DNA from: a candidate division LCP-89 bacterium B3_LCP
GTDB taxonomy: Bacteria > Electryoneota > B3-LCP
Assembly (NCBI GenBank): GCA_005223185.1
Contig: NJBN01000001.1
Location: 441,365 to 505,364 of the forward strand
Direction of reading: 5' to 3'
DNA length: 64,000 nt
Each line of letters opens with the position of its first letter. Position 1 is the first letter of the stretch. The notes under the pieces were generated by a model. The model was not told where the DNA came from and did not search any database. It was given only the letters and a program-made list of their open reading frames with translations. Positions 1,560 through 55,797 of this stretch are shown piece after piece. The translations under genes and the position numbers were made by a program.

Positions 1560-1568
1560 GTTACAAAT

Positions 1569-1619
1569 GTAAGGGCAGGTTTTCGCGTAGCGGCGGCTTT
1601 GCCGCAAACCTGCCCCTAC
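1569..1619. repeat. Palindromic element gtaagggcaggttt…aaacctgcccctac directly after the stop of the first cargo gene
   Basis: 14-nt inverted termini (13/14 complementary) around an inner gcggc…gccgc hairpin. Same terminal sequence family as the in-frame elements at 31587 and 53483. Confidence 0.7.
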
Positions 1620-1767
1620 ACTATCCCAGTAGGGCAGGGAGCCTGTCCTGCTCTGGCGGGACGCTTCCCCCGCCTTTTTACTATCCGGTCCCGCCCATGC
1701 GGGATCGTTTTTTTCAGCCTATCTAAAAAAGAGGAAACCTTGCATGCGAGCCCAAGAAGATATTCTC

Positions 1768-4110: not shown

Positions 4111-4152
4111 CTAAAAAAAGTGGCAGTTTTAATACAATCAGGAGGTAATAAA

Positions 4153-6825: not shown

Positions 6826-6872
6826 TCCCGTAGTCGAGGTCGCCTGCGCCCATGGTGTCCCTGACCCCGACA
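6826..6872. repeat. Palindromic repeat cccgtagtcgaggtcgcc…gtccctgaccccgacat
   Basis: Related copies at 36688-36718, 37931-37960, 38385-38414 and, reverse-complemented, near 55640. Confidence 0.6.
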
Positions 6873-29594: not shown

Positions 29595-29786
29595 TAATAA
29601 TAACAAATACCCACAGGCTGTCATTCTGGCAAGCGTAGCGCGTCCAGAATCTGACAGCCTTACAATGTTGGGTCTCCACAGTTCAACTGTGGGTTAATCC
29701 TTCCCAAAAGAGCCTCCTTCAGGGGGCTTTAAATATCCGTAGGCCAGTGCTTTAGCGCTGGACTACTTCCCGTCAACTTGACAAGT

Positions 29787-29856: not shown

Positions 29857-29885
29857 TTGACTTACCTGTTTAAATTGTTTATATT
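29857..29885 (+). promoter_or_regulatory. Sigma-70-like promoter TTGACT-N17-TATATT
   Basis: ttgact 29857-29862, 17-nt spacer, tatatt 29880-29885. A partial copy of the upstream module (aatcacttSgg…aaaactatc.cttgact) is also present at 29291-29330. Confidence 0.5.
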
Positions 29886-29924
29886 TTGAGTAGAAAAATA
29901 TCGTGTAAAGTAGATGGAGTTGAA

Positions 29925-31754
29925 GTGACTGAATCCTCAAGAAATCGAATAAAACGTTTGTATAAATACATATACATCCTCATATCATTGCTGATATGCA
30001 TACTATTCCTATTCCAGAAAGATACCCAGGCAGAAGCAGCACGGATATACATGGACGGTAATTTCAGCGACTGGGAATCAGTAGAACCACTGCATGTTGA
30101 TCCTGTCGGTGATCAATTAGTTGACAGCCTGGATTTCGGTACTCTCTGGGTGGCTAATGATGAACGATACCTTTTCCTATGCCTGGAACTGGGAACTGAT
30201 ATACTTCTGCAGGAAGAACACGATTTCGATCTCTATCTGGATACGGACAACGACCCATCTACCGGGCAGCCAATCAACGGCATTGGAGCTGATTTCGACT
30301 GGAATTTCAATGATGGAGACGGTCACTTTCGCGTAGGTCCTATTCCCTATCCCGTTGACCATGAAGACTTAAGCTTTGTCACTGCACCCACTGTTTCATC
30401 CGATATCTACGAGATTGTAATCGATCGGTACGCAACTCCTGTGGGTCAGTATGAACTGTTCACCAGCGATACCATATCCATTCTCTTTCATGATAGCGGC
30501 GCCGGGCAGGATTATCTTCCCGATGCGGGAACGACATTACAGTATGTATTCGATGATTCTCCTTTGCCTCCATTTCCGGTATCATCGATTCAAAAGCAGG
30601 ATCCGTCGCATATCCGCGTTCTGTCCTACAACGTACATCTGGATGATTTCTTCGATCCTTACCTTGAAGATGAATACACGCGCATTCTTAATGCTATCGA
30701 ACCGGATGTAATCGCTTTCCAGGAAATCTACGATCACAATGTATTTGAAACAGTTGACCGGGTGACTGCGATGCTGGGTGGGGCATGGTACGGCACCAAG
30801 ATCAACCCGGACATAATCCTGGTCAGCCGATATACATTTGCAGAAACCATTAACATCTACGATGATGGCAACGGAGCTTTCCTCCTCAACCTGCAGCCGG
30901 ATTACGACTGTCAGATGCTGGTTATAAACGCTCACCTGCCCGCTGGACAAGCCAATACAAACAGGCAGAATGAAGTTGACGCCATTATGGCCTTCATCCG
31001 AGATGCCAAAGAACCCGGTGGAGAATTAGAATTGGAAGAGAACACCCCAATTCTCATTACCGGAGATATGAATTTCGTGGGTTACGCGCAACAACTGGTA
31101 ACCATGGTTACCGGGCAGATCTACTTCACGGGCCCGTTCGGCCCTCCCTTCGATCCCGATTGGGATGGAACCGATTTTACCGATCTGACCCCACGCCATA
31201 CAGATACGCCCTTCTATTTCACCTGGTATAACGATTGGAGCTACTATACCCCTGGCCGCTTCGATTTTATGATATACAGCGATTCGGTCCTGGAAGCCTG
31301 GAATAACTTCGTCCTGTTCACTCCGGGAATGTCACCCGATTCCTTAGCCGCCAATGGTCTGCAGGCTGATGACGTTTTAGATGCTTCAGATCACCTCCCC
31401 GTCGTCTGCGATTTCGTGCCTAATCCGGAAATGGGTGTATCTGGCAAGGATGACAGCCACAAACCAGCTGAATACGCTCTGTTACAGAACTTCCCCAACC
31501 CCTTCAACCCCACAACAGTTATCAGTTTTTCTATGCCAGTTTCGAGTTGGGTGAAACTGGATGTGTTCGATATAAACGGACGCAATGTAGGGGCGGGTTT
31601 GTCCCGCAGGGACGCCGAAGGCGAAACCCGCCCTTATACCCCCGGCACCCACCAAATCACCTTCGATGGATCTGGTCTTCCCTCTGGTATCTACTTCTAC
31701 CGTCTGACGGCGGATGATTTCACAGCGATAGGTAAGATGGTGCTGATCAAGTAA
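29925..31754 (+). CDS. Secreted endonuclease/exonuclease/phosphatase (EEP)-family protein with T9SS C-terminal domain
   Basis: Start moved to GTG 29925 (GGAG 5 nt upstream; the TTG at 29886 sits at the predicted transcription start). Signal peptide. EEP motif set: LSYNV, DVIAFQEI, INAHL, TGDMNF, YSD, SDHLPV. C-terminal Por_Secre_tail. Paralog of the C-terminal half of the 33227 gene. Confidence 0.7.
   Translation: MTESSRNRIKRLYKYIYILISLLICILFLFQKDTQAEAARIYMDGNFSDWESVEPLHVDPVGDQLVDSLDFGTLWVANDERYLFLCLELGTDILLQEEHDFDLYLDTDNDPSTGQPINGIGADFDWNFNDGDGHFRVGPIPYPVDHEDLSFVTAPTVSSDIYEIVIDRYATPVGQYELFTSDTISILFHDSGAGQDYLPDAGTTLQYVFDDSPLPPFPVSSIQKQDPSHIRVLSYNVHLDDFFDPYLEDEYTRILNAIEPDVIAFQEIYDHNVFETVDRVTAMLGGAWYGTKINPDIILVSRYTFAETINIYDDGNGAFLLNLQPDYDCQMLVINAHLPAGQANTNRQNEVDAIMAFIRDAKEPGGELELEENTPILITGDMNFVGYAQQLVTMVTGQIYFTGPFGPPFDPDWDGTDFTDLTPRHTDTPFYFTWYNDWSYYTPGRFDFMIYSDSVLEAWNNFVLFTPGMSPDSLAANGLQADDVLDASDHLPVVCDFVPNPEMGVSGKDDSHKPAEYALLQNFPNPFNPTTVISFSMPVSSWVKLDVFDINGRNVGAGLSRRDAEGETRPYTPGTHQITFDGSGLPSGIYFYRLTADDFTAIGKMVLIK
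31587..31638 (+). repeat. Palindromic element embedded in frame in the T9SS C-terminal domain coding sequence
   Basis: gtaggggcgggttt-gtcccgcagggacgccgaaggcg-aaacccgccc: inverted termini plus an inner gtccc…gggac hairpin. Encodes VGAGLSRRDAEGETRPY, which replaces the shorter canonical loop (ATxVDGFRNA). Confidence 0.7.
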
Positions 31755-31821
31755 TTAAATAATATGTGGACGTTAAACTTCCTATTGTATTCCCTGAAAA
31801 AGATTTCACCCTGATAATTAC

Positions 31822-31850
31822 TTGATAAATGAAGTGTGATTGAGTATATT
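31822..31850 (+). promoter_or_regulatory. Sigma-70-like promoter TTGATA-N17-TATATT
   Basis: ttgata 31822-31827, 17-nt spacer, tatatt 31845-31850. The ORF-track start at 31836 lies inside this promoter. Confidence 0.45.
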
Positions 31851-31889
31851 CTGGGAAAGAAAGTAGTACCTTCCTGTTTTGAGGTTCTT

Positions 31890-33049
31890 ATGAAAGCTAT
31901 CTTGCTTAGTCTTCTTCTTTTCACATTAACATTAGCCGCTCCCGCCCAACCACCTATCCTCTGGTTCCAAACCTTCGGTGGATCCAATTATGATTACGGT
32001 AAAAGTGTCCAACAGACAGGCGACGGTGGGTATATCATTGGAGGATATACCGAATCCTATGGTGCAGGTTCAAAAGACGTCTATTTAGTCAAAACCCACG
32101 CTTTTGGTATAGAGCAGTGGAGTCAAACCTACGGTGGAAGCTCCGATGATGGTGGCTGGAGTGTTCAGCAGACGAATGACGGAGGATATGTCATAGCGGG
32201 CGAGACCAATTCTTTTGGTGCTGGTGGTAGTGATGTATATTTAATCAAGACAGACGCTTCTGGGATAGAACAATGGAATCAGACCTACGGTGGAAGCGAT
32301 TATGAAGAGGGCTTCAGTGTACAGCAAACCTACGACGGCGGTTATATTGTTACTGGATATACCCTATCATACGGTGTTGATTATGAAGATGTATATTTAG
32401 TCAAGACCAACGCTTCAGGCATACAACAATGGAATCAGACCTACGGTACAACCATATCTGATTATGGTAGAAACGTACAGCAGACCTCCGACGGTGGTTA
32501 TATCATAGCGGGATGGACCTTATCTTATGATAGTGATGTCTATCTAATTAAAACATCTCCCTCTGGTAATTATCAATGGAGTAAGACTTTCGGTGGGGAA
32601 GCGCGTCGGATTGGGGAAACAGTGTTCAGCAGACTTCTGACGGCGGGTATATCGTTGCGGGGTCGACCACTTCCTACGGCGCTGGAGAAACTGACGTTTG
32701 CCTGATCCGCCTGGATGCTGAGGGGACACCTGTAAAAGATCCAGGCTTCATACAGGATATCCCCAACGATTTCGCTTTGTACGAAGCCCACCCCAACCCC
32801 TTCAACCCCACCACAACCATCAACTTCGAGTTACCAGTCGCCAGTTTAGTGGAACTGGATGTGTTCGACATCTCCGGTTCCCGCGTAGGGGTCGCCTGCC
32901 CCTTCGGGGGTCTTGCGCCGACCCGTATCTACACCCCCGGCACCCACCAGATCACCTTCGATGGATCTGGTCTTCCCTCTGGTATCTACATCTACCGCTT
33001 ACAAGCTGGCGAGTTTTCAGCGATAGGTAAGATGGTGCTACTCAAGTAA
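31890..33049 (+). pseudogene. T9SS cargo gene with tandem ~48-aa beta-propeller-like repeats, interrupted by a -1 frameshift near 32598
   Basis: Start ATG 31890 (gagg 5 nt upstream; signal peptide MKAILLSLLLFTLTLAAPAQ). Repeats of YGGSxxDxGxSVQQTxDGGYIIxGxTxSYGAGxxDVYLIKT. Frame 0 derails after TFGG at about 32598 and stops at 32705. Frame 2 continues the repeat (SASDWGNSVQQTSDGGYIVAGSTTSYGAGETDVCLIRL…) into the C-terminal domain ORF 32777-33049. The slip is in a gggg/aa run; a sequencing error is not excluded. Confidence 0.55.
32885..32926 (+). repeat. Palindromic element embedded in frame in the T9SS C-terminal domain coding sequence
   Basis: gtaggggtcgcctgcccc-ttcg-ggggtcttgcgccgaccc: outer gggtcg/cgaccc stem with an inner cccc-UUCG-gggg hairpin; encodes GVACPFGGLAPTR. 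A 60-nt stretch around it is identical to 36391-36450 in the next gene. Confidence 0.65.
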
Positions 33050-33074
33050 TGAACCAGCTTAAAAGTGATTGTAG

Positions 33075-33102
33075 GGGCGGACCTCTGTGTCCGCCCTTTT
33101 TT
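33075..33102 (+). terminator. Rho-independent terminator
   Basis: gggcggac-ctctgt-gtccgccc followed by tttttt. Confidence 0.65.
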
Positions 33103-33163
33103 CTTTCGGAGTCCCTTCTTATGATTACCCCACTGTTTCATTTCCCACAAAAATTTTCTTCGC

Positions 33164-33192
33164 TTGACTAAGCGATTTATTTTTTGTATATT
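33164..33192 (+). promoter_or_regulatory. Sigma-70-like promoter TTGACT-N17-TATATT
   Basis: ttgact 33164-33169, 17-nt spacer, tatatt 33187-33192. The ORF-track start at 33164 lies inside the -35 box. Confidence 0.5.
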
Positions 33193-33226
33193 ATGTCCAC
33201 ACACTTCCATAAGAAAGGATGAGAAA

Positions 33227-36200
33227 ATGAACCGTCTGATGTTATCTATTTACATACTACTGTTCGGGTTTATTTCTGCCGTTCGTGCAGACACCACATT
33301 TGTTGCTTCAGGTCCGGTATCCGGCGCCTGGACTTCAGCCGGCAACCCTTACTTCGTCTATGAAGGTGATATCGTGGTTCCGGACGGCAGAAGCCTGACC
33401 GTTCTGCCCGGTGTTGAGGTGCTGTTCACCGGCAACTACAAACTGACTGTAGAAGGATTGCTGAACGCCGAAGGCACTGAAGCAGATTCGATAACTTTCA
33501 CCAGGGCTTATTCAACCGAAGAATCCAAGTGGCGCGGTTTCCGCTTCGATGCTGCAGATGATGGCTGTACTCTAAAATACTGCCGCATAGAATACGCCAA
33601 AGGCACCGGCCCTTATCCCGATGTGCGCGGTGGAGGGGTGTGGATCGAAAACTGTTCGGTGCTGATAAGGAATTGTACCATAGCGCATAATTACACGCAT
33701 AACGAAAACTACAACGGTTCTGGTGGTGGTATCTTCTTAAATCAGAGTGATCAGAGTATCATCGAATACAACTATATAACCCAAAACCAGGCAGACAATG
33801 GCGGCGGTATATGTGTCGGGCAGAATTGCTACACCATAATCCGGCATAATACTTTCGATAACAACCAAACCTACTCATCCGGGGGAGGTATATACGTCTC
33901 AGCCAACGGAGAATCCGTCATCAATGATAATATATTCGTGGACAATCACTCCAGCGGCATTTACGGCGGAGGAGCTATAAACCTGTGGAGCGCTACCTGG
34001 ATATACGGAACGTTTTCCTATGTGTACAACAACCTGATAATGAACAATACCGCCTCTTCAGCCGGCGGAGGCATCTATCATCGCTACGAATCTTCGATAG
34101 TTTATAATAACACTCTGGTTGGCAATCAGGCCAATCAGGGAGGTGGAATTTACGTTTTGACTTTTTCCGATCTGCCGCCTACTATTTATAATTCCATAAT
34201 TTGGGGAAACAATGCCCCGGTGGGCAGCCAGATTTATCTCGATCCTCAATCGGGGAGCGTCGCCAATATCAGCTATTGCGACGTACATGCCGGATGGCCA
34301 GGTGTGGGAAATATCAATTCCGATCCGGAATTCGTGTCAGGGTCCGGTGGCGATTACTACTTGAGTCAGATCGCTGCAGGACAGCCTGTGCAGAGTCCCT
34401 GTGTGGATGCCAGCGATCCCATTTCAACCATGATAACCGGCACTACCAGAACGGACGGCGTCCAGGATGAGGGTATCGTGGATATGGGGTATCATTATGC
34501 CATCGAAACGGTTGTCAGTATGAACGTGGTTCTGACGCCTTTGAACCCGCCCATCCAGATTCCGGCTATAGGGGGAACTTTCGAATTTGACGTCTTAATC
34601 GAAAATCTGGAGTCATCGCCCGTTCTTTGCGATATCTGGACAGAAGCTATCTTACCCAGTGGACAACCATATCCGCTGATCTTACGGGAAGACGTGAATA
34701 TCCCTGCAGGGGGCAGTATTGAGAGGACGTTATCTCAGAACGTACCCGAGAGCGCCCCAGCAGGATCGTACAGCTACCATGCCTATGTCGGTGATCATCC
34801 GAACATGGTTTACGCAGAGGACAGCTTTACTTTCGAGAAGTTGACCGGTTTAGAAGCCACACGGATATACATGGACGGCGATTTCAGCGATTGGGAATCA
34901 GTTGAGCCACTGCACATCGACCCGGTTGGTGATCAATTGGCCGACAGCCTGGATTTTGGCACCCTCTGGGTGACTAACGATGAACGCTACCTGTTCCTCT
35001 GTCTGGAAGTGGGAGCGGAGATGATGATACAGGTGGAGCATGACTTCGATCTCTACCTGGATACGGATAACGACATCTCCACCGGGCTGTCCATCAACGG
35101 AATAGGTGCTGATCTGGATTATAATTTCAACGATGGAACCGGCAACTTTCTCGCGGGAGGAACTACCTATACTATCTACCATGAAGATCTGGGACTTGCC
35201 ACCGCACCCACCTACTCATCAAATATCTACGAGATCGTAATCGACAGGGAAGCCTATCCAGCGGGTCAATATGAACTGTTCACCAGCGATACCATATCCG
35301 TTCTCTTCCACGATAGCGGTCCCGGGCAGGATTACCTTCCCGATGAGGGGACTACTATCCAGTATGTGTTCGATGATTCCCCCTTACCAACACTACCGGT
35401 TTTATCGCTTCAGAAGCAAGATCCATCGCATATCCGCATCATGTCCTACAATGTCTGGACGGATAACCTCTTTGAACCCGACCTTGAAGATGAGTACACG
35501 CGCATTCTGAATGCCATCGAACCGGACATAATCGCTTTCCAGGAAATCTACAATCACAATGCTTCCCAGACAGTTGACCAGGTGACTTCAATGTTAGGAG
35601 GACAGTGGTACGGCTACAAGATCAATCCCGACATAGTCCTGGTCAGCCGATATGAAATAGCGGAGACATTCAACGTCAACAATGACGGCAACGGAGCATT
35701 CCTCCTCGATCTGCAGCCTGACTACGACTGCCAGATGCTGGTTATAAATGCCCATTTGCCAGCAGGACAATCCAATACTGGCAGGCAGCATGAAGTTGAC
35801 GCCATAATGGAATTCATCCGGGAAGCCAGAGAACCCGGCGGTGAACTGGAGCTGGAAGTGAACACCCCTATCCTGATCACAGGTGATATGAATTTCGTGG
35901 GTTATTATCAGCAGTTGTTTACCATGGTTACAGGTCAGATCTACTACACAGGTACGTATGGACCGCCGTTTGAACCTGACTGGGACGGCACCAATCTTAC
36001 CGATCTGATTCCACGTCATACTGATACTCCCTTCTATTTCACCTGGTATAATGAATCGAGTTACTACTGCCCCGGCCGCCTGGATTTCATGATATACAGC
36101 GATTCCGTGCTGGAAGCCTGGAACAATTTTGTCCTCTTCACGCCGGGAATGTCACCCGATTCCTTAGCTGCCAACGGCCTGCAATGGGATGACGTTGTAA

Positions 36201-36571
36201 ATGCTTCTGACCATTTACCCGTAGTAGGTGATTTTGTACCCAATCCGGGCACAGTCTTGGCGGGAAATTATAACAGCCAGCAACCAGCCCGGTTCGCACT
36301 ATTACAGAACTATCCCAATCCGTTTAATGCATCAACAACAATCAGTTTCCAGTTGCCAGTTTCGAGTCTGGTAGAACTGGATGTCTTTGACATCTCCGGT
36401 TCCCGCGTAGGGGTCGCCTGCCCCTTCGGGGGTCTTGCGCCGACCCGTCAATATTCACCCGGCACCCATCAAATCACTTTCGATGCATCGGGATTAGCAT
36501 CTGGTATATACCTTTACCGACTGCAGGCTGGCGAGTTTTCCGCGATAGGGAAGATGGTGCTGGTGAAGTAA
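33227..36571 (+). CDS. Secreted multidomain protein: parallel beta-helix region + EEP (endonuclease/exonuclease/phosphatase) domain + T9SS C-terminal domain
   Basis: Start ATG 33227 (aagga RBS; signal peptide MNRLMLSIYILLFGFISAVRA). Beta-helix-like repeats (GGGVWIENCSVL, GGGIFLNQSD, GGGICVGQNC, GGGIYVSANG). C-terminal half is paralogous to the 29925 gene with the full EEP motif set (MSYNV, DIIAFQEI, INAHL, TGDMNF, SDHLPV). C-terminal Por_Secre_tail. Confidence 0.7.
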   Translation: MNRLMLSIYILLFGFISAVRADTTFVASGPVSGAWTSAGNPYFVYEGDIVVPDGRSLTVLPGVEVLFTGNYKLTVEGLLNAEGTEADSITFTRAYSTEESKWRGFRFDAADDGCTLKYCRIEYAKGTGPYPDVRGGGVWIENCSVLIRNCTIAHNYTHNENYNGSGGGIFLNQSDQSIIEYNYITQNQADNGGGICVGQNCYTIIRHNTFDNNQTYSSGGGIYVSANGESVINDNIFVDNHSSGIYGGGAINLWSATWIYGTFSYVYNNLIMNNTASSAGGGIYHRYESSIVYNNTLVGNQANQGGGIYVLTFSDLPPTIYNSIIWGNNAPVGSQIYLDPQSGSVANISYCDVHAGWPGVGNINSDPEFVSGSGGDYYLSQIAAGQPVQSPCVDASDPISTMITGTTRTDGVQDEGIVDMGYHYAIETVVSMNVVLTPLNPPIQIPAIGGTFEFDVLIENLESSPVLCDIWTEAILPSGQPYPLILREDVNIPAGGSIERTLSQNVPESAPAGSYSYHAYVGDHPNMVYAEDSFTFEKLTGLEATRIYMDGDFSDWESVEPLHIDPVGDQLADSLDFGTLWVTNDERYLFLCLEVGAEMMIQVEHDFDLYLDTDNDISTGLSINGIGADLDYNFNDGTGNFLAGGTTYTIYHEDLGLATAPTYSSNIYEIVIDREAYPAGQYELFTSDTISVLFHDSGPGQDYLPDEGTTIQYVFDDSPLPTLPVLSLQKQDPSHIRIMSYNVWTDNLFEPDLEDEYTRILNAIEPDIIAFQEIYNHNASQTVDQVTSMLGGQWYGYKINPDIVLVSRYEIAETFNVNNDGNGAFLLDLQPDYDCQMLVINAHLPAGQSNTGRQHEVDAIMEFIREAREPGGELELEVNTPILITGDMNFVGYYQQLFTMVTGQIYYTGTYGPPFEPDWDGTNLTDLIPRHTDTPFYFTWYNESSYYCPGRLDFMIYSDSVLEAWNNFVLFTPGMSPDSLAANGLQWDDVVNASDHLPVVGDFVPNPGTVLAGNYNSQQPARFALLQNYPNPFNASTTISFQLPVSSLVELDVFDISGSRVGVACPFGGLAPTRQYSPGTHQITFDASGLASGIYLYRLQAGEFSAIGKMVLVK
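36407..36446 (+). repeat. Palindromic element embedded in frame in the T9SS C-terminal domain coding sequence
   Basis: Same element as 32885-32926 (gtaggggtcgcctgccccttcgggggtcttgcgccgaccc); encodes GVACPFGGLAPTR. Confidence 0.65.
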
Positions 36572-36580
36572 AAACAAACC

Positions 36581-36618
36581 GTCATTGCGAGGACGGCGCA
36601 GCCGGACGAAGCAATCCC
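36581..36618. repeat. GTCATT-type palindromic repeat (gtcattgcgaggacggcgcagccggacgaagcaatccc)
   Basis: Same family as 6758-6800. Confidence 0.55.
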
Positions 36619-36839
36619 ATAATAATTAATACTATAGGGTGGGGGTGCTTGTCTGCCTCGGGCAGGCTTCTCCCGCCTTTTCTAATTCCGTAGTCGGGGT
36701 CGTCCCTGACCCCGACATGAGGTAGCGCGGGAGCTATATGGGCAGGCCAATCCCTGCGCGAGATATTCACAGGATTTTCCCTTATCAGGGACAATGAGCG
36801 GTTTGGATGCTGCGAAAATTTGCCTTTTTTTTAAAATCC

Positions 36840-36868
36840 TTGACAATATGCTATATTATTTGTATATT
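36840..36868 (+). promoter_or_regulatory. Sigma-70-like promoter TTGACA-N17-TATATT
   Basis: ttgaca 36840-36845, 17-nt spacer, tatatt 36863-36868. Confidence 0.5.
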
Positions 36869-36915
36869 GCACTGTGATCGCAGCAGATTTAAATTCAATT
36901 AATCATGGAGGAGTT

Positions 36916-37734
36916 ATGAGAAATGCTATGCTATTTATAACCGTCCTGATTACTGCAGGTGTAGTGATTTGCTCCGCTGGTACGCAGGGCGTTATAAATC
37001 CCATTCCAACGGTAGTTGACGGCACTACCCAGGGAGATTTCATGGACTGGAATTGTTGGGAGGGTTTCCGACCCATTGATGATCCGACCGACGTGATTGA
37101 TACCTTGTGGTGGACAGGCAATATCGAATACCACATCTTCGGCACTCAGTCCATAAGCTGGGATCCTGATTTACCGGAGATCGGTGGGGTGGTAATGGAG
37201 ATCAAGTACGGTCTATGGAATTCGCCGCAGGTGGGATTGGCAGTTTCGGTTAATGGTAATCCAGTGGGAGTTTGCATGGCCAATTATGGCTATATATCGC
37301 CAGGGCCAAAATACGGGCGAGCACACATTTCCGACTACATCGTAGCGGGGCCTGACCTGATCGAGATCGTAGCTTCCTATGGTGGTGAGGCTGTAATCGG
37401 TTATGTAGCAACCGCAGTTTGGGTTGATGGAGATAATCTTGCTGGTGAGGTTGAAGACACTTTCAAGCCGATGGATTTTGAATTAATAGGTCCTGCTCCT
37501 AACCCCTTCAATCCGACCACGGTGATTGGTTTCCAACTGCCAAATGCCGGGAAAGTCAACCTGGCCATTTACGATATTTCGGGCAGACAGGTCGCCGAAT
37601 TGGTCAACGGCTGGCGCGATGCAGGTATGCATGAAGTAACCTTCGATGCATCTGATTTAGCTTCAGGCATCTACCTTTACCGCTTACAGGCAGGAGAGTT
37701 TTCAGGGGTAGGAAAGATGGTGTTAGTGAAGTGA
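36916..37734 (+). CDS. Small secreted protein of unknown function with T9SS C-terminal domain
   Basis: Start ATG 36916 (ggaggag RBS; signal peptide MRNAMLFITVLITAGVVICSAG). C-terminal Por_Secre_tail (APNPFNPTTVIGFQLP…YLYRLQAGEFS…KMVLVK). Confidence 0.55.
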   Translation: MRNAMLFITVLITAGVVICSAGTQGVINPIPTVVDGTTQGDFMDWNCWEGFRPIDDPTDVIDTLWWTGNIEYHIFGTQSISWDPDLPEIGGVVMEIKYGLWNSPQVGLAVSVNGNPVGVCMANYGYISPGPKYGRAHISDYIVAGPDLIEIVASYGGEAVIGYVATAVWVDGDNLAGEVEDTFKPMDFELIGPAPNPFNPTTVIGFQLPNAGKVNLAIYDISGRQVAELVNGWRDAGMHEVTFDASDLASGIYLYRLQAGEFSGVGKMVLVK

Positions 37735-37784
37735 CGCACTGTGTGCGTCATCCTGAACGTAGTGAAGGATCTCATTTCAATTGT

Positions 37785-37814
37785 AGGGGCAGACCTCTGT
37801 GTCTGCCCTTTTTG
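37785..37814 (+). terminator. Rho-independent terminator
   Basis: gggcagac-ctctgt-gtctgccc followed by ttttt. Confidence 0.6.
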
Positions 37815-37894
37815 TTTGCTCCCTACCGTCATCGCGAGGAATCCGTCAGCCGACGGATGACGAAGCGATCCCAAAGCTCTTCAGATAAATCTCA

Positions 37895-38002
37895 TTTTCA
37901 CTGCTGTCGGGTCTCCGTACCCGACAGATCCCGTAGTCGGGGTCGCCCCTGACCCCGATACCATGCCGTAGGGCGGGGGTGTCCGTAAGGACTCCAATGG
38001 AG
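37895..38002. repeat. 108-bp direct repeat, copy 1 (composite of palindromic modules)
   Basis: ttttcactgctgtcgggtctccgtacccgacagatcccgtagtcggggtcg.ccctgaccccgataccatgccgtagggcgggggtgtccgtaaggactccaatggag; near-identical to 38349-38456. Confidence 0.8.
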
Positions 38003-38348
38003 TAGGCGGGGTGGCATGCTTCTGGATCGCCTAAGGCGAATCGAAGCATGTTTAAATCGTCCAGATATTGACCCCACAGCAGATCTGTGGGGCACCTAAC
38101 AGACGAATTCAAGTTTGTCATTCCGCACTTGATGCGGAATCCAGAATACCCGGAAATATCCGAACGGCTCCTATGGAGAATTCCTGAGCTAACCAATTTC
38201 TGTCCCGTGAAGCGGGACGTAAAGGTTTAAGCATCCCGCTTGAGCGGGATAGCATAAAATTAGCCCGGAAATTCATTTCCGGGTGGTGTAAGGTAATTAA
38301 TCAAAATGTCATTCTGAGCAAGCCGAAGGCGCAGCGAAGAATCTCCTG

Positions 38349-38456
38349 TTTTCACTGCTGTCGGGTCTCCGTACCCGACAGATCCCGTAGTCGGGGTCGT
38401 CCCTGACCCCGATACCATGCCGTAGGGCGGGGGTGTCCGTAAGGACTCCAATGGAG
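38349..38456. repeat. 108-bp direct repeat, copy 2
   Basis: Near-identical to 37895-38002. Confidence 0.8.
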
Positions 38457-38750
38457 CTTCCCCCGCCCTTTATTTATCGTTCCACTGGTACAAATTTGTC
38501 CGCCAATTTGTATTGTCCGCTAATTCTGTCATCGGTATTAAGATTACGGTAGATCGCCTGGATGACTAAAATGTCGTAGTCAGGGGTGGATGGGATAGTT
38601 TTCATGTGCATTATATAGTTGGATTATGAGGGGAGATTGTTGTATTTGAACAAACAATTGAGGTGAGTACTTATATATAATATACAACAATTCATCAGAA
38701 AATGCAAGGAGTTTTGGCAGAAATATGGAGTGGGTGGTGGTTCTTTAAAG

Positions 38751-38915
38751 GTTTCAAATCCCCCTTGGTCCCCCTTTGGAAAAGGGGGAAACTGCGTAAT
38801 TCCCTGCATACCCACTAACACCCCCCTTTCCCAAAGGGGGGAGTCCCAACTTGTTGGGACGGGGGGATTTCGGGACGGGGGGATTTCGGGACGGGGGGAT
38901 TTGGGCGGGGGGATT
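38751..38915. repeat. G/C-tract-rich ~165-bp direct repeat flanking the 3' side of the DUF559 gene
   Basis: ggtttcaaatcccccttggtccccc…ccctgcatacccactaa…cccccctttcccaaaggggggag…, then 3 tandem units of gggacggggggatttc. About 85-90% identical to 39275-39425. Confidence 0.8.
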
Positions 38916-39261
38916 ACAGATGATTCCAAATCACCTGCAGCACCCCCTCAATATTATTCATAACCTCCAGGTTGCTGAATCGCAACACTTGAAATCCTAA
39001 TTCATTCAGATATGAATCTCGTTTACGGTCTTTGATCTTACCCTGAGGGGTAAAATGTTGTTCACCATCTAATTCAATAATTATTTTCGCTTTAGGACAA
39101 TAAAAATCAACAATGTAATTTCCAATTACTCTTTGACGATAAAATTGGGTACGTTTTAGTTGTTTGCGTCGTATTCTGTTCCAGAGCCGTTTCTCTGCTT
39201 CAGTGGCATTATTTCTTAACTCTCTGGCAAGAAGTTTCAATTTGGGATTATAATAGATCAT
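38914..39261 (-). CDS. DUF559-family endonuclease-domain protein (Vsr-like PD-(D/E)xK fold)
   Basis: 115 aa; strong match to the remembered DUF559 pattern (YIVDFYCPKAKIIIELDGEQH…FQVLRFSNLEVMNNIEGVLQVI). Confidence 0.8.
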   Translation of the reverse strand: MIYYNPKLKLLARELRNNATEAEKRLWNRIRRKQLKRTQFYRQRVIGNYIVDFYCPKAKIIIELDGEQHFTPQGKIKDRKRDSYLNELGFQVLRFSNLEVMNNIEGVLQVIWNHL

Positions 39262-39274
39262 GCTTCATTGTTGA

Positions 39275-39425
39275 GGTTTCAAATCCCCCTTGATCCCCCT
39301 TTTCCAAAGGGGGAAACTGCATCTTTCCCTGCATACCCACTAATTCCCCCCTTTCCCAAAGGGGGGAGCCCCGACTTGTCGGGGCGGGGGGATTGGACGG
39401 GGGGATTTTAGACAGGGGGATTAAA
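39275..39425. repeat. G/C-tract-rich ~150-bp direct repeat flanking the 5' side of the DUF559 gene
   Basis: ggtttcaaatcccccttgatccccc…ccctgcatacccactaa…cccccctttcccaaaggggggag…gggcggggggatt…; same orientation as 38751-38915. Confidence 0.8.
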
Positions 39426-48375: not shown

Positions 48376-48780
48376 AGTGTAGTTTCCACTGCCCTGTTGC
48401 TGTTATTACCCGTATGTGGTATGCTGGGGGGGGGTATCTATAATGGACATTGATTAGTTATTTTTGACAGGTAGAGCGGGGGCTTGCCCCCGCTGGCGGT
48501 AGCAAGCTACCGCGCTACTTCTAAGTGTGCCGTCAGGTGCCCTCACCTGACGGAATAACAATGACTAATGTGTCCGCGGGGGCGCATGACACCACTATAA
48601 TATGAAGAATTTGAGCTTGCTTCGTCATCCGTCGGCCGACAATGGGACACAGGATTGCTCCAAGGGAGTCCCTATGGGAAAATCCTATGCCCAATTTTTA
48701 TCTCAAAGTGGATAAATCCACTAACCTGATTACTCAGGACAGTCTGGGATAATAAGTATCAATCTTATAGCTTATGAACT

Positions 48781-49374
48781 TCATTTGCCCTTAATTCCTT
48801 TACTGCCGGGTGCTATAAGAGCAACGTTATCGCGGCAGAGGGGGCAATCTGCTGGATCATACGTGGCGATGTTCATCTCCAGCAAAGCTATCGCTTCCGT
48901 TCCTAATTCCAGAGGCTTGCCGGAACGGTTGACCAGTACGGCTGCACCGATGGGGTCGGCTCCCGCTTCCCGCACCGCTTCCACCACCTGCCGCGCGGAA
49001 CCACCAGTAGTAACGATATCTTCCACCACCAGGACTCTTTCACCCGGTTGAAAGGCGAAACCCCTGCGGAATTCCAGTTTGTCGCCAACTCTTTCAGCGA
49101 AGGCACAGGGGACATTCAGTGATCTGGCGACTTCGTACGCTATTACTACTCCACCAAGAGCGGGTCCCGCTACCCGCTCTACATTGCGGTCCCGGAATGC
49201 GTCAGCCATGGCGCTGCAGAGTTCTCCGGCGATTTCCGGGCGTTCCAGCAAACGGAATTTCTCCACGTACTGCCCGCTGTGTTTCCCCGAACGGAGTTCG
49301 AAATGTCCTTCCAAGTAGGCGCCGCATTTCTTCAGTAGTTCTTGCACTCGTTGGGGTGAAATAGGTTCGATCAT
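48781..49374 (-). CDS. pyrE: Orotate phosphoribosyltransferase
   Basis: 197 aa; PRPP-binding motif VLVVEDIVTTGGS. Confidence 0.85.
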   Translation of the reverse strand: MIEPISPQRVQELLKKCGAYLEGHFELRSGKHSGQYVEKFRLLERPEIAGELCSAMADAFRDRNVERVAGPALGGVVIAYEVARSLNVPCAFAERVGDKLEFRRGFAFQPGERVLVVEDIVTTGGSARQVVEAVREAGADPIGAAVLVNRSGKPLELGTEAIALLEMNIATYDPADCPLCRDNVALIAPGSKGIKGK

Positions 49375-53201: not shown

Positions 53202-53349
53202 GTCAAGAAAGTTGGTGGACTGCGCTCGTCCGTCAAGGGACGTACTTAGTCCACCCTACATCTGAACGCTCATCTGTCATTCTCTCTTGGTCGGAAATTG
53301 GACGGATGAGCAATGTCAGACTCCGGACAAGCCGGAGTGACATTGCTCT

Positions 53350-55248
53350 TTATTTCAGCAGCACCATCTTCCCTGATGCCGTATATTCCTCAGCCGTCAG
53401 GCGATAGATGTAGATGCCGGAAGACAGGTTCGATCCATCGAAGGTGATTTGGTGGGTGCCGGGAGGATGCCATGCGCCCTGTGTAGGGGCGGGTTTACCC
53501 TTATAAAGGGTGCCTTCGGCAAAACCCGCCCCTACATTGCGCCCGTTGATGTCGAACACATCAAGTTTCACTAAACTCGCAACTGGCAGGGAGAAGCTGA
53601 TGGTTGTGGTGGGGTTGAAGGGGTTGGGGTAGGCGCCGTTCAGGGTAAACTCATTTATGGTAAAATCTGTAAATTTATTGAGATACTCATCAGGTAGTTT
53701 ATCCCACCCCGTCAATATCCAGTTCGATACTGTGTGAGAATCTGATGAACCTGGCAGTTTCTCAAAGGGAAAATGATCCTCAGCTAAGAGCTCGATGGTA
53801 TTATGGTCATAGATGTAAGCATTGTAAACATAGTCTCCAGCAAGCGCATAGCCGGGGACGTTCTGGGCAATACTATCCCGCTGGATGACAGACCCTGGGA
53901 CTAAATTAATCCCCTGGCGATTGAAAACCTGATAGATAGCACCGCTCGGCAAAGTAATATCGTTCCGAATATCAACAATGTAGGTAATACTATCATTATT
54001 GGCAATTTCAATATCGTAGGTAAACGAACCGCCCGCTGCAGGAATCTGAATCGGAGGATTATGGGGATTAAGTACAACTGATATGTACTGTTGTTCAGGT
54101 TCAAGGCATATCATCAGGAAGTCTGCTATTCCAGCGCCAAGCGTATTTGTCCATCCAGCAATAAAATAACCTTCGTTATTCGTTTGATCAACCGCATATC
54201 CGACACTACTGTATCCACATGCAAACATTTTATGCCATTCTTCACTGCCGGAGGCATCTGTCTTTAATAAATAGACTCCTGGAGGCGAATAAGAAAGCGA
54301 ATACCCCGTCACTATGAATCCGTTATCGGACGTAAGATCAACGCTATGACCTTCTTCAGCTGAAGTTCCCCCGTACGTTTGTGTCCATGTTGGGTTCCCA
54401 TCAGCATCGGTCCTCAGCAAACACACATCGTACATGCCTGCCCCGGATGAATTGGTCGCGCCGGTGATAATATAACCTCCATCAGGCGTTTGCATAACGT
54501 CATGTCCAACGTCTGACCCACTGCCGCCATAAGTCCTCGACCATTGTTCAATACCAAAAGCATCGGTTTTTATCAAATACATATCATAAAACGAGGAAGA
54601 CATTGAAAAGGAATTGGTGCAGCCGGCGATAACGAAACCATCGTCTGAGGTTTGTCTAATACTGAATCCCTCATCACAATTGGAACCACCGAAAGTCCTC
54701 TCCCACTGTGTAATACCGTTGCTGTCAGTTCTAATGATAAAAATACTCTCTTCGCCGGGACCATATGACCAGGTTTCAGCAACAAGAATATATCCGTTAT
54801 CACTGGTTTGTATTACGTCATTACCAGCGTCTCTGCCTGTACCACCGTATGCTTCAGACCATTCTTCGTTTCCGTTTTCATCAGTTTTTATCAAATAAAT
54901 ATCGCAATCTCCCGGTCCGAATGAGAAGGTGTCACCAATGATGATATATCCACCATCTGTGGTCTGTATTATACCAGTTCCGCTTTCATATGAAAACCCA
55001 CCGAAAGTTTTTGTCCAGACGGTGTCACCATTGGCATCAACTTTCACAAGATATACATCAGCAGAACCATTACCGAAAGACGCTGTTTGTCCCACAGTAA
55101 TAAAACCACCGTCCGTTGTCTGCTGCCCATCGAAGCAGAAGTCACTTTCAATCCCTCCACAGGTTTGAATCCATTGGGTATTTGGCTGAGCATTAATTGA
55201 GAAAGCGAGAATAAAAATCGCTAACAAAGAAGTATGAAATCTATGCAT
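53350..55248 (-). CDS. Secreted protein with tandem ~48-aa beta-propeller-like repeats and T9SS C-terminal domain
   Basis: Start moved to ATG 55248 (aggaggtg RBS; signal peptide MHRFHTSLLAIFILAFSINAQ). Repeats of TFGGxxxExGxxIIQTxDGGYIIxGxTxSFGxGxxDIYLIKTD, paralogous to the 31890 gene. C-terminal Por_Secre_tail containing the in-frame palindrome. Confidence 0.6.
   Translation of the reverse strand: MHRFHTSLLAIFILAFSINAQPNTQWIQTCGGIESDFCFDGQQTTDGGFITVGQTASFGNGSADVYLVKVDANGDTVWTKTFGGFSYESGTGIIQTTDGGYIIIGDTFSFGPGDCDIYLIKTDENGNEEWSEAYGGTGRDAGNDVIQTSDNGYILVAETWSYGPGEESIFIIRTDSNGITQWERTFGGSNCDEGFSIRQTSDDGFVIAGCTNSFSMSSSFYDMYLIKTDAFGIEQWSRTYGGSGSDVGHDVMQTPDGGYIITGATNSSGAGMYDVCLLRTDADGNPTWTQTYGGTSAEEGHSVDLTSDNGFIVTGYSLSYSPPGVYLLKTDASGSEEWHKMFACGYSSVGYAVDQTNNEGYFIAGWTNTLGAGIADFLMICLEPEQQYISVVLNPHNPPIQIPAAGGSFTYDIEIANNDSITYIVDIRNDITLPSGAIYQVFNRQGINLVPGSVIQRDSIAQNVPGYALAGDYVYNAYIYDHNTIELLAEDHFPFEKLPGSSDSHTVSNWILTGWDKLPDEYLNKFTDFTINEFTLNGAYPNPFNPTTTISFSLPVASLVKLDVFDINGRNVGAGFAEGTLYKGKPAPTQGAWHPPGTHQITFDGSNLSSGIYIYRLTAEEYTASGKMVLLK
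53483..53535. repeat. Perfect 53-bp palindromic element embedded in frame in the T9SS C-terminal domain coding sequence
   Basis: gtaggggcgggttt (53483-53496) and aaacccgcccctac (53522-53535) are exact reverse complements, enclosing two small hairpins (ccctt-ata-aaggg and gcc-ttc-ggc). Encodes the extra loop VGAGFAEGTLYKGKPAPTQGAWH. Confidence 0.8.
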
Positions 55249-55741
55249 GATAGCACCTCCTAAACTTATTAATTGCATAACGAATGTCACTAAGTTGTTG
55301 ACTCGTGTGCTGTAGGATATATTATCTCAAATTCTGTGCCGTATAATTTAATCGACACAACTTTCCTGGTGTAATTATTTCCGCCTATAGTCAGGGATAA
55401 GAGAATTATCCCACTGAGTAGGTTTCCTGTTGTGTCAGGCTTTGCCTTCGAAGTCTTGACCTGCTCCAGCGGGATGAAGCCTGCCCTCAACCGAATTACC
55501 TCTAATATACACAATATTTTCGGTTTTGTCAAGTGGTTTGTTTTTTTGGGGGGATTTTCTCGAAAAAAGCGTCAGGTCTCCGTTGCACTAAGGACCTAAC
55601 GCAACATGTAAAGCGGGGGCAAGCCCCCGCGCTACCTTTTGTCGGGGTCAGGGACGGCCCATGCCGAAGGACAGGCAAGCCCGAATACGGGATAAGGAAA
55701 GGGCGGACACAGAGGTCTGCTCGGGGGAAGCCTTGTGAATT

Positions 55742-55772
55742 AAAAAAAGGGCAGACACATAGGTCCGCCCCT
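55742..55772 (-). terminator. Rho-independent terminator (minus strand) downstream of acyl-CoA dehydrogenase
   Basis: Minus-strand gggcggac-ctatgt-gtctgccc followed by ttttttt; same hairpin family as 33075 and 37785. Confidence 0.6.
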
Positions 55773-55797
55773 ACAGTATTTCAGAGTCAGTGTGGGA

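Follow-up and report, generated by a model that had tools for sequence, protein, structure and literature searches.

The GC-rich palindromes in the C-terminal sorting domains (CTDs) of three adjacent cargo genes of type IX secretion (T9SS), together with a fourth one at 53482-53536, are most probably GTAG-tagged REP copies of the REP-RAYT kind that are translated in frame within the CTDs. We rate this reading at about 85%. All positions refer to the window, by which we mean the whole stretch of 64,000 nucleotides from the candidate division LCP-89 bacterium B3_LCP that was analysed.

Results

All four in-frame copies open with GTAGGGG. Protein and DNA alignments place the start of the insert at the same codon in genes 1 to 3, directly after the Val of a 'G(R/S)xV' motif. 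The CTDs of these genes comprise 92, 91, and 91 residues, compared to 84 for canonical CTDs of the window (+8, +7, +7). This agrees with a previous sequence-only reading, which had described them as 7-8 residues longer and whose coordinates and sequences for the palindromes in the CTDs ending at 31754, 33049, and 36571 were also found to be correct. Taking the window as a whole, in-frame REPs add 7-14 residues to the CTDs. They occupy a whole number of codons and contain no stops in the frame used, and the host ORFs stay open throughout; gene 2 (31836-33049) shows a frameshift ∼250 nt upstream of its REP. REPs in the window measure 26-55 nt, with stems of 8-15 bp.

Gene 1 (29886-31754) harbors a Y-shaped nested palindrome at 31587-31637 (plus strand; GTAG-GGGCGGGTTT / GTCCC-GCA-GGGAC / GCC-GAA-GGC / AAACCCGCCC-TTAT), which encodes VGAGLSRRDAEGETRPY. 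It folds into a 13-bp outer stem and two inner hairpins (-34.2 kcal/mol, z = -3.3), and none of 200 shuffled sequences was equally stable. The arms of this element recur at 1568-1620, with a compensated G>A / C>T pair, and in the fourth in-frame copy (53482-53536, minus strand), which adds 14 residues to the CTD encoded by gene 53350-55290 and consists of perfect 15-bp arms (TGTAGGGGCGGGTTT / AAACCCGCCCCTACA) enclosing two inner hairpins (-41.9 kcal/mol, z = -5.6). The elements of gene 2 (32882-32932, plus strand; CGC-GTAG-GGGTCG[CCTGCCCCTTCGGGGGT]CTTGCGCCGACCC-GTAT-CTAC) and gene 3 (gene 33164-36571; element 36404-36448, plus strand) belong to a different, RAYT-associated family. Both represent REP GCGTAGGGGTCGGYCTTGCGCCGACCC (GGGTCGG..CCGACCC) interrupted in its 5' arm by a nested CCCC-TTCG-GGGG mini-hairpin, and the gene 3 copy has lost the 3' CTAC tail. 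An exact scan of metagenome contigs did not return any match for this nested composite. In RNA folding, 31587 exceeded chance, but the elements at 32885 and 36407 on their own are no more stable than shuffled sequences (z = -0.9 and -0.6); these two count as palindromes only as interrupted copies of a known hairpin.

Genes 2 and 3 are otherwise unrelated, yet they have 60 nt in common. The run 32867-32926 is exactly identical to 36389-36448 (both plus strand), compared to 72% identity for the rest of the two CTDs, and the probability of such a run arising by chance is ∼2.5e-7. The earlier claim of complete identity despite diverged flanks, and its explanation by gene conversion or a shared element, stand. 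The tract is wider than the palindrome, since it starts 18 nt upstream of GTAG and thus includes CTD codons (DISGSR) in addition to the REP. Genes 1 and 3 are ∼80% identical paralogues that differ completely at the element and the preceding 18 nt. It appears that the REP plus 18 upstream nt recently moved between the CTD paralogues of genes 2 and 3, most simply as a short gene-conversion tract. The true paralogue of gene 3 is gene 1, in which the same codon holds another REP.

REP GCGTAGGGGTCGGYCTTGCGCCGACCC is linked to RAYT genes in other genomes. In an LCP-89 metagenome-assembled genome (L008), inverted copies flank an ORF scoring 102 bits on NCBIfam NF047646 'REP-associated tyrosine transposase' (cutoff 80). 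The same REP flanks a 63%-identical RAYT on a metagenome contig (L047), and a compensated variant follows a RAYT with 51% identity (L048/L049). Both inverted copies are present at two of the three RAYT loci (the related LCP-89 genome and two metagenome contigs). Another locus, L003, carries an E. coli-like RAYT gene flanked by the REP family of window position 53214-53259, as well as an uninterrupted copy of the gene 2/3 REP at the same CTD site (10094-10171). An exact-match scan of metagenomes yielded 17 copies of REP GCGTAGGGGTCGGYCTTGCGCCGACCC. Sixteen of them are extragenic, one directly after a CTD stop, while the remaining one (L041 180) resides inside a CTD, where it occupies the same codon and is inverted. 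The window itself did not yield a RAYT gene, and tblastn with E. coli RayT gave no match. Among the 4 and 120 matches listed for two LCP-89 RAYT queries, none was labelled B3_LCP. For the gene 1 element family, no link to a RAYT was established.

The same hairpin families also occur outside of genes, in agreement with the notion that the palindromes are elements, and they recur at other LCP-89 loci and in metagenomes. We identified 17 GTAG-headed hairpins in the 64 kb, 13 of which are extragenic, with 12 of these 13 located between unidirectional or convergent ORFs. Nearly all extragenic hairpins are found just downstream of ORFs, often 8-120 nt past the stop codon. GTAGGGG occurs 14 times (5.6 expected), a number reached by no shuffle, and 6.2% of GTAG sites head a hairpin of ≥8 bp, compared to 1.3-3.9% for permuted tags (5.4% for the overlapping TAGG). 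The Y-shaped relative of the 31587 element at 1568-1620 (minus strand, z = -3.75) lies 8 nt past the stop of a CTD gene. Hairpins followed by a T-run are located 21 nt past the stop of gene 2 (33071-33096, plus strand, terminator-like) and downstream of the CTD gene 36874-37734 (37783-37808, plus strand). Gene 3 is followed by a copy of the family CCGTAG-TCGGGGTCG-N5-GACCCCGA-CAT (36690-36716, plus strand), and the CTD gene 4120-6723 by a GTAG-tagged REP (GTAGTCGAGGTCG...GACCCCGAC; 6830-6871, plus strand). A REP cluster at 37933-38469 (plus strand) contains two GTAGTCGGGGTCG..GACCCCGA copies (37933-37958 and 38387-38412) and a Y-shaped GTAGGGCGGGGG..CCCCCGCCCT element (38422-38469); a 108-nt direct repeat (37895-38002 = 38349-38456) holds both copies as well as the 5' part of the Y-shaped element. 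Further extragenic copies are a GTAGGGTGGACTAAG..CAGTCCACC REP between two convergent CTD genes (53214-53259, minus strand), two tandem GTAGGGGCGGAC-type hairpins downstream of gene 55798-56958 (55701-55774, minus strand), and, with no strand assigned, a double hairpin in a GTAG...CTAC frame (48471-48518) and the palindrome GTAGGCCAGTGC..GCGCTGGACTAC upstream of gene 1 (29739-29766). The hairpin at 49157-49182 (ORF 48781-49374) was rejected as a fifth intragenic REP: judged by eye, it codes for part of a conserved sequence of phosphoribosyltransferase type, without any additional residues.

We surveyed the CTD site in the 120 best database matches, in which the canonical segment comprises 24 residues. 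Exactly this length was found in 81 of the 120, and about 36 bear a REP-type peptide at the site (VGARHAVPLQ, VGVGLAPTR, SGSGTTPTT, and others). Since most CTDs from other taxa are canonical as well, the additional residues are derived, as had been suggested, and not ancestral. In other uncultured bacteria, the site is occupied by other REP families, by tandem and nested copies, and in both orientations; in related genomes it holds perfect 28-nt palindromes (GTAGGGGCACGGCATGCCGTGCCCCTAC), tandem pairs, and further families. The CCGTAG-TCGGGGTCG family is found in frame in the CTDs of L005, L006, L007, and L041, and in a LutB-family gene of L001, whose ORF gave no match in a PDB sequence search. 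L006 and L041 represent clean insertions with an intact canonical strand (V[GMSGSGTTPTT]ALVNGWR). At the L006 junction (GTT|33 nt|GCATTG, with an inferred empty site), reading by eye revealed no convincing target-site duplication. Most copies at the CTD site replace 4-8 canonical residues rather than simply inserting, which implies a deletion after insertion or another process.

Despite the additional residues, the host domains are still recognizable as T9SS type A CTDs (PF18962, TIGR04183). Genes 1 and 3 and gene 53350-55290 score 31.3, 36.5, and 40.3 bits on Pfam PF18962 Por_Secre_tail (cutoff 27), and the C-terminal ORF of gene 2 (P0001) is annotated as PF18962. They share with this family the KMVLLK-type final strand and the predicted Ig-like β-sandwich, and solved T9SS CTDs (8glk_D, 8qb1) ranked near the top of the fold matches, although their E-values were weak. 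They differ in that strand β3 is largely replaced by element-encoded residues. In the AlphaFold model of a canonical CTD, β3 spans residues 37-46 (pLDDT ∼97). The model of the gene 1 CTD retains every other strand; confidence is low for residues 36-50, and the 3' arm of the REP codes for a strand of 4 residues. According to these models, the β-sandwich is kept in the element-bearing CTD and strand 3 is shortened. The elements had been assigned to the same loop position. The codon is indeed identical, but the element begins at the β2-β3 turn and displaces most of β3.

Discussion

Our results point to short GC-rich stem-loops of the sort mobilised by, or co-evolving with, RAYT/TnpA(REP) HUH tyrosine transposases. 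These sit right after the Val codon that opens strand β3. Because they comprise whole codons and are stop-free in the frame used, they would be read as a Gly/Ala/Arg/Pro-rich excursion at the β2-β3 turn, and the remaining β-sandwich would stay. One RAYT lineage would have as its cognate REP the element of genes 2 and 3, whose 5' arm houses a second small hairpin. The element of gene 1 comes from another REP family, in which the complex loop contains two hairpins. For an L008-type RAYT, single-stranded GCGTAGGGGTCGGTCTTGCGCCGACCC would be the expected target of binding and cleavage. RAYT activity presumably placed the elements in the CTDs. That the site is a hot spot probably reflects its tolerance together with its occurrence in very many paralogues, and the elements presumably ride along as neutral or selfish passengers that serve no function in the cargo genes.

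In one rival reading, a single ancient insertion into one CTD was spread by domain duplication, and active REP families later replaced the hairpin by conversion between shared GTAGGGG/CCCCTAC ends, without any site-specific targeting. We consider this a possible but rather unlikely history. Element-bearing CTDs, in the window as well as among the metagenome matches, do have common flank signatures (VFDI..., LDVFDI.GR.VG ... PGTHQITFDGS), which fits partial common descent better than many independent hits. The 60-nt tract demonstrates that conversion between paralogues occurs, and the paralogues gene 1 and gene 3 hold different REPs at one codon. But at least three events require separate origins: the CCGTAG-TCGGGGTCG family within the fully canonical flank ALVNGWRGAGSHEVTFD (L006, L041), the reversed RAYT-linked family (L041 180 and, judged from the peptide, P0013 of B3_LCP), and the insertion in P0116, which is located after strand β3 instead of before it. 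Moreover, related genomes carry in-frame REPs at a second CTD site, in a linker, and in the LutB-family gene. The codon after 'GRxV' might even be a genuine site at which REPs processed by RAYTs are preferentially integrated or repaired. REPs there would drive short conversion tracts, and the many CTD paralogues would swap the 3' half of their secretion signal like a cassette. We regard this as a speculative extension that is probably not correct in this form.

Alternatively, the hairpins could be under selection as RNA or DNA structures that act in cis on the cargo genes, with their REP-likeness being secondary. Conceivable roles are ribosome pausing ∼120 nt before the stop, stabilisation of the mRNA 3' end, attenuation, or a recombination site for swapping the 3' half of the sorting signal. 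RNA hairpins of -34 to -42 kcal/mol are very stable, the extragenic relatives resemble terminators, and effects of REPs on mRNA stability and termination have been reported (PMC3733652). In L001, the 3' part of the CTD is partially duplicated right after the stop, with the duplicate beginning exactly at the REP, and a REP is also at the centre of the 60-nt identical tract. All four in-frame copies of the window end 117-132 nt before the stop codon, but this constant distance is explained by a fixed site within a domain of fixed length. The site shows free variation in REP family and orientation, in the number of copies (single, tandem, nested), and even in length, and the copies in genes 2 and 3 lack significant structure. 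No element is present in five of the nine full window CTDs aligned or in most CTDs elsewhere, and a search of the whole window against Rfam at the gathering threshold matched no family. Taken together, this makes a cis-acting function improbable. Intrinsic termination was rejected for the in-frame copies, which lack the T-run found at the extragenic hairpins 33071 and 37783.

A protein-level adaptation, that is, a lineage-specific surface loop with merely incidental DNA symmetry, is already contradicted by the present evidence and very improbable. It would account for the intact frame, the Pfam scores above threshold, and the fold kept in the AlphaFold model. But the encoded peptides are mutually unrelated, in contrast to the DNA with its perfect or nearly perfect palindromes; one and the same element is read both ways to give different peptides; non-coding DNA and the surroundings of RAYT genes contain identical DNA families; and model confidence is low exactly across the element. 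The identical 60 nt could in principle stem from repeat-induced chimeric joins during assembly or binning, given a metagenome-assembled genome and a frameshifted gene 2, but this can be practically dismissed, as the same architecture is found in independent NCBI, ENA, JGI, and Logan assemblies and the tract is internal to two otherwise collinear, differently diverged genes. MITEs were also rejected, based on the missing target-site duplication at the L006 junction and the elements (26-55 nt) being shorter than MITEs. Integron attC sites, T-shaped parvovirus-like hairpins, 'byp' bypass elements, and archaeal-type mRNA introns have no supporting feature; these were dropped because the elements are in frame and stop-free and the associated genes are absent nearby.

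The elements resemble the GTAG-tagged REPs and REPtrons described for E. coli (REP/BIME), Pseudomonas (REP/REPIN), and Stenotrophomonas (SMAG) (Di Nocera et al. 2013, PMC3733652; Corneloup et al. 2021, PMC8266576). Common features are GC-rich stem-loops with GTAG at the foot, several families per genome, a location mostly downstream of ORFs, singleton, tandem, and clustered copies, compensated stem variants, and, at RAYT loci of other genomes, a cognate RAYT gene between inverted copies. Published REPs are chiefly extragenic, downstream of ORFs and between unidirectional or convergent genes (PMC3733652), a distribution that the hairpins of the window follow. As differences, about one quarter of the window copies are located within one protein domain family, and our searches located no RAYT for B3_LCP. 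Many copies are also fully symmetric (GTAG...CTAC), and the host belongs to an FCB-group candidate phylum, LCP-89, that is not on the phylum list consulted in PMC3733652. GTAG-3 and GTAG-14 REPs with complex loops (PMC3733652) likewise have an outer stem enclosing further pairing, as seen at 31587, 53482, 1568, and 38422. Here, the loop consists of two separate mini-hairpins forming a three-way junction, and the extra hairpin of genes 2 and 3 breaks the stem of the REP, not the loop.

In-frame REPs as such are already known. According to PMC3733652, GTAG repeats of Opitutus terrae and the RPEs of Rickettsia conorii (Ogata et al. 2000, cited therein) are palindromic repeats translated in frame, which occur as single, double, or clustered inserts of ∼10-30 residues in presumably tolerant surface regions. 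As described there, they are scattered over unrelated proteins, many of them involved in DNA repair and replication, at varied positions. In our case, one T9SS CTD codon is hit repeatedly, by several families, in both orientations, and in many paralogues and uncultured lineages. A recurrent hot spot of this kind appears to be unreported: our search for T9SS CTDs combined with palindromic repeats found no such report within the limited literature covered.

These observations bear on three questions. For annotation, REPs provide an explanation for the odd motifs rich in Gly, Ala, Arg, and Pro that form a large class in metagenomic 'T9SS type A sorting domain' proteins, with VGARHAVPLQ, VGVGLAPTR, and SGSGTTPTT as examples. 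For secretion, the sorting domain apparently tolerates, judging from the structural models, 9-23 arbitrary residues in place of most of β3, which is relevant for recognition by the translocon. Lastly, regarding the spread of REPs, RAYTs cleave REPs in vitro, but transposition has never been demonstrated in vivo, not even in E. coli (PMC8266576). A domain with many paralogues, in which one position is either empty or filled with a REP, represents a natural experiment on target choice, orientation, nesting, and conversion. If the codon after 'GRxV' were indeed a preferred site, its empty, filled, tandem, nested, and inverted alleles could reveal the mechanism of REP dissemination.

GC-rich extensions in T9SS sorting domains

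At least nine full type A C-terminal sorting domains (CTDs) of the T9SS are encoded in the window, which has a GC content of 47%. On the plus strand, these domains (…PNPFNP…KMVLLK*) end at positions 1559, 6723, 18549, 31754, 33049, 36571, 37734 and 53151; a further one, encoded on the minus strand, ends at 53350. Every one tested passed the Pfam model PF18962. Extra GC-rich sequence is present in four of them (ends 31754, 33049, 36571 and 53350). According to protein and DNA alignments, it starts at a common codon, directly 3' of the Val in 'G(R/S)xV'. The first three belong to adjacent plus-strand cargo genes (gene 1, 29886-31754; gene 2, 31836-33049; gene 3, 33164-36571), the fourth to the minus-strand gene 53350-55290. 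The four domains comprise 92, 91, 91 and 98 residues, compared to 84 in the canonical CTDs of the window, in agreement with the extra residues that the sequence-only reading had noticed in the three cargo genes.

All four in-frame elements open with GTAGGGG and end 117-132 nt 5' of the stop codon. The gene 1 element (31587-31637) folds into two small hairpins enclosed by an outer stem of 13 bp (-34.2 kcal/mol, z = -3.3), and the fourth element (53482-53536) has perfect arms of 15 bp (z = -5.6). The elements starting at 32885 (gene 2) and 36407 (gene 3) do not exceed shuffled sequence in stability (z = -0.9 and -0.6, respectively). Hence, of the palindromes described earlier for the three cargo genes, the one in gene 1 is structured, whereas the significance of those in genes 2 and 3 is limited to their being a known hairpin in interrupted form.

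AlphaFold, run with an alignment, predicts six strands for the canonical CTD of gene 36874-37734, with β3 formed by residues 37-46 (pLDDT ~97). In the model of the gene 1 CTD, β3 is supplanted by a strand of four residues (TRPY) that the 3' arm of the palindrome encodes. The remaining strands are all retained, and the element-encoded residues 36-50 have a pLDDT of ~57. The best Foldseek matches included the solved T9SS CTDs 8glk_D and 8qb1, with weak E-values. The models thus place the beginning of the element at the β2-β3 turn and predict that it eats into β3, so that the loop position first assigned to it is accurate for its start but not for its extension into the strand.

The elements are GTAG-tagged REPs

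GTAG-tagged REPs are short, GC-rich, GTAG-tagged palindromes that occur in several families per genome and mostly lie just 3' of ORFs (Di Nocera et al. 2013, PMC3733652). The elements of the window, to which our REP survey of the B3_LCP genome refers (64 kb), match this definition. GTAGGGG occurs 14 times compared to 5.6 expected, a number reached by no shuffle, and the majority of the occurrences outside the four CTDs head GC-rich extragenic hairpins. In a systematic scan of the window, 6.2% of all GTAG occurrences lay at the foot of hairpins with 8 bp or more, compared to 1.3-3.9% for permuted tetranucleotides with the exception of the overlapping TAGG (5.4%). Seventeen tagged hairpins were catalogued, four in-frame and 13 extragenic; 12 of the latter lie between unidirectional or convergent ORFs, and several are only 8-120 nt past a CTD-gene stop codon. 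The extragenic element 1568-1620 has the same arms and architecture as 31587 and 53482, except for one G>A exchange, for which C>T in the other arm compensates. For the CTD as a hot spot, uniform placement as a crude null gives a binomial P of ~8e-7 (4 of 16 elements inside ten 30-nt sites).

Other repeats were found in the same region. A dense BIME-like cluster of small hairpins (37780-38470) lies 3' of gene 36874-37734 and contains a 108-nt direct repeat (37895-38002 and 38349-38456, 99% identity), each copy containing CTGTCGGGTCTCCGTACCCGACAG, a REP of the GTAGTCGGGGTCG type and the beginning of a Y-shaped GTAGGGCGGGGG element. A 121-nt direct repeat with CCCCCCTTTCCCAAAGGGGGG hairpins (38749-38869 and 39274-39394, 89% identity) brackets a DUF559/restriction-endonuclease-like gene on the minus strand (38914-39261), and together they may represent a small mobile or duplicated unit. 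A repeat family without GTAG, GTCATTGCGAGG...CGAAGCAATCC / GTCATTCTGAGC...GAAGAATCTC, is present at 36581-36620, 37817-37870 and 38310-38345; similar sequences are widespread in metagenomic DNA.

RAYT genes and their REPs

The window and the retrieved database loci were searched for REP-associated tyrosine transposases (RAYTs) by tblastn with E. coli RayT as query, using NCBIfam NF047646 (cutoff 80) as model. Two RAYT genes were identified in a related LCP-89 MAG, at loci L003 and L008. The L008 protein (152 aa from the ATG at 3703) scores 102 bits, and inverted copies of CCGCGTAGGGGTCGGTCTTGCGCCGACCC are located on the flanks of its gene. The same pair flanks a RAYT gene on an unrelated ENA contig (L047, 63% identical to the L008 protein), and a compensated variant, GGGTCGGGGCAAGCCCGACCCCTACGC, follows the gene of a RAYT with 51% identity (L048/L049). 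The L008 hairpin is also found uninterrupted at the CTD site of L003 (…TCCCGCGTAGGGGTCGGTCTTGCGCCGACCCGC…), and in genes 2 and 3 the 17 nt CCTGCCCCTTCGGGGGT replace two bases in its 5' arm. In the consensus of this REP, (C)GC precedes GTAG, which explains why the element is accompanied by 'SGSR' codons, not only in the window but also in L003 and in the database proteins P0005 and P0012.

The L003 RAYT (2993-3511) reaches 181 bits on NF047646 ('REP-associated tyrosine transposase') and is 50% identical to RayT of E. coli K-12. It is flanked by GTAGGGTAGACT… repeats, to which the GTAGGGTGGACTAAG… hairpin at window 53214-53259 is related. Its closest relatives in the database are for the most part proteobacterial (~50-55% identity), which suggests acquisition of this REPtron by horizontal transfer. 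None of the RAYTs found could be linked to the element family of gene 1.

Probable exchange of elements between genes 2 and 3

A 60-nt stretch had been reported as identical between genes 2 and 3 despite diverged flanks, with recent gene conversion or a shared element insertion as suggested causes. The identity of 32867-32926 and 36389-36448 is exact, compared to 72% identity over the other 216 aligned positions of the CTDs (chance P ~2.5e-7 for the tract); together with the alignments and folds described, this confirms the observation. Gene 1 is a paralogue of gene 3, and both encode an endonuclease/exonuclease/phosphatase domain and a CTD. Their nucleotide identity is ~80% up to the CTD and is lost completely in the element and the preceding 18 nt. 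Gene 2 has no similarity to gene 3 5' of the CTD and is identical to it exactly where genes 1 and 3 differ. The simplest reading of this pattern is a short conversion tract, or an element replacement, between CTD paralogues.

Gene 2 contains a one-base frame change in its last β-propeller-like repeat, near 'ggggaagcgcgtcggattggggaaacagtgttcag' (32560-32705). It may be a pseudogene, or the change may be a homopolymer sequencing error. The NCBI annotation comprises the 132-aa C-terminal ORF alone (CEE37_01885), and this B3_LCP protein, the best database match (P0001), is identical to the gene 2 C-terminus, which assigns the window to this MAG or to one nearly identical to it. Near-identical promoter-like sequences, TTGAC(T/A)-17-TATATT, precede each of four tandem cargo genes (29857-29885, 31822-31850, 33164-33192 and 36840-36868). 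For gene 3, the site at 33164 implies a start at the ATG at 33228 instead of the TTG at 33164.

Several REP families occupy the same CTD site

An exact-match scan of JGI metagenome contigs with GTAGGGGTCGGYCTTGCGCCGACCC yielded 17 loci with 16 extragenic copies, one of them immediately 3' of a …KMVLMK* stop codon. The remaining copy, at the metagenomic locus L041 180, is located in a CTD at the same codon in reverse orientation (V[GSAQGRPLR]EGWMEAGSH). A B3_LCP protein from another contig (P0013) has VGSAQDRPLRDGW at the CTD site, and its peptide points to the same reverse-oriented REP. Other occupants are perfect 28-nt palindromes (GTAGGGGCACGGCATGCCGTGCCCCTAC in L010; GTAGGGGCGAGGCATGCCTCGCCCCTAC in L004 and L009), tandem REP pairs (L001, L005, L007) and the CCGTAG-TCGGGGTCG family, a clean 33-nt insertion that keeps the canonical strand (V[GMSGSGTTPTT]ALVNGWR; L006, L041). 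Scanning species-representative genomes revealed CTD-site elements also in the LCP-89 MAG that contains the two RAYT genes and in one further MAG. In L001, a second, promoterless copy of the 3' part of a CTD (3568-3790) directly follows the CTD-gene stop codon; it starts exactly at the tandem REP pair (…AGTAGGGGCGCATGGCGGTGCGCCC…), ends at its own KMVLMK* stop and resembles a breakpoint of recombination or duplication at a REP.

Of the 120 best matches that a profile of element-bearing CTDs gave in the database, ~36 have REP-type peptides at the site and 81 the exactly canonical 24-residue segment, proportions biased upward for the elements since the searches were seeded with element-bearing CTDs. 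None of the CTDs recovered from Balneola, Ignavibacteria, Cloacimonadales, Chitinophagales and others contains such an element, and nearly all have the canonical segment. Both observations show that the extension is derived and not ancestral, in line with the sequence-only reading.

Proposed origin and precedents

RAYTs bind single-stranded REP hairpins, for which GTAG has a guide-like role, and their cleavage sites are CT or CA dinucleotides on the 5' or 3' side of the hairpin; how REPs disseminate in vivo is not understood (PMC8266576). We propose that REPs of several families would reach the CTD either through RAYT-dependent strand transfer or through repair with other copies as template, and that only copies that preserved the frame, contained no stop codon and lay at a tolerant position would survive. 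Conversion could then swap them among the many CTD paralogues. Later deletions would have trimmed the displaced β3 codons, which could explain why most copies resemble replacements and not pure insertions.

Nested or complex-loop REPs are already documented, and in-frame REPs are on record as well, for example in Opitutus terrae and in Rickettsia conorii (RPEs); in contrast to the elements described here, the latter are spread over unrelated proteins (PMC3733652). Our literature search retrieved neither a link between REPs and T9SS sorting domains nor a description of REPs for LCP-89. Therefore, while in-frame and nested REPs themselves are known, we regard the preference for the CTD site as unreported and striking.

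In-frame REPs also occur at further places in related genomes. L005 and L007 contain a second site within the CTD, 5' of GKMVLLK. In two neighbouring genes of L007, an identical nested REP, GGGCGAGGC-ATCCGTCGATAGACGGAC-AGGCAGCCTCGCCCCTAC (8016-8056 and 9946-9986), lies in the linker adjoining the CTD upstream and is translated as GKGEASVDRRTGSLAPT. A LutB/LldF-family iron-sulfur protein (L001 7748-9346; TIGR00273, 452 bits) carries two in-frame REPs (~8160-8230; peptides SGSGATPTT and VGATRASPS), which cut its TIGR00273 profile alignment into two stretches. Judged from these sequences, intragenic REP insertion appears to be general, with the CTD as a hot spot.
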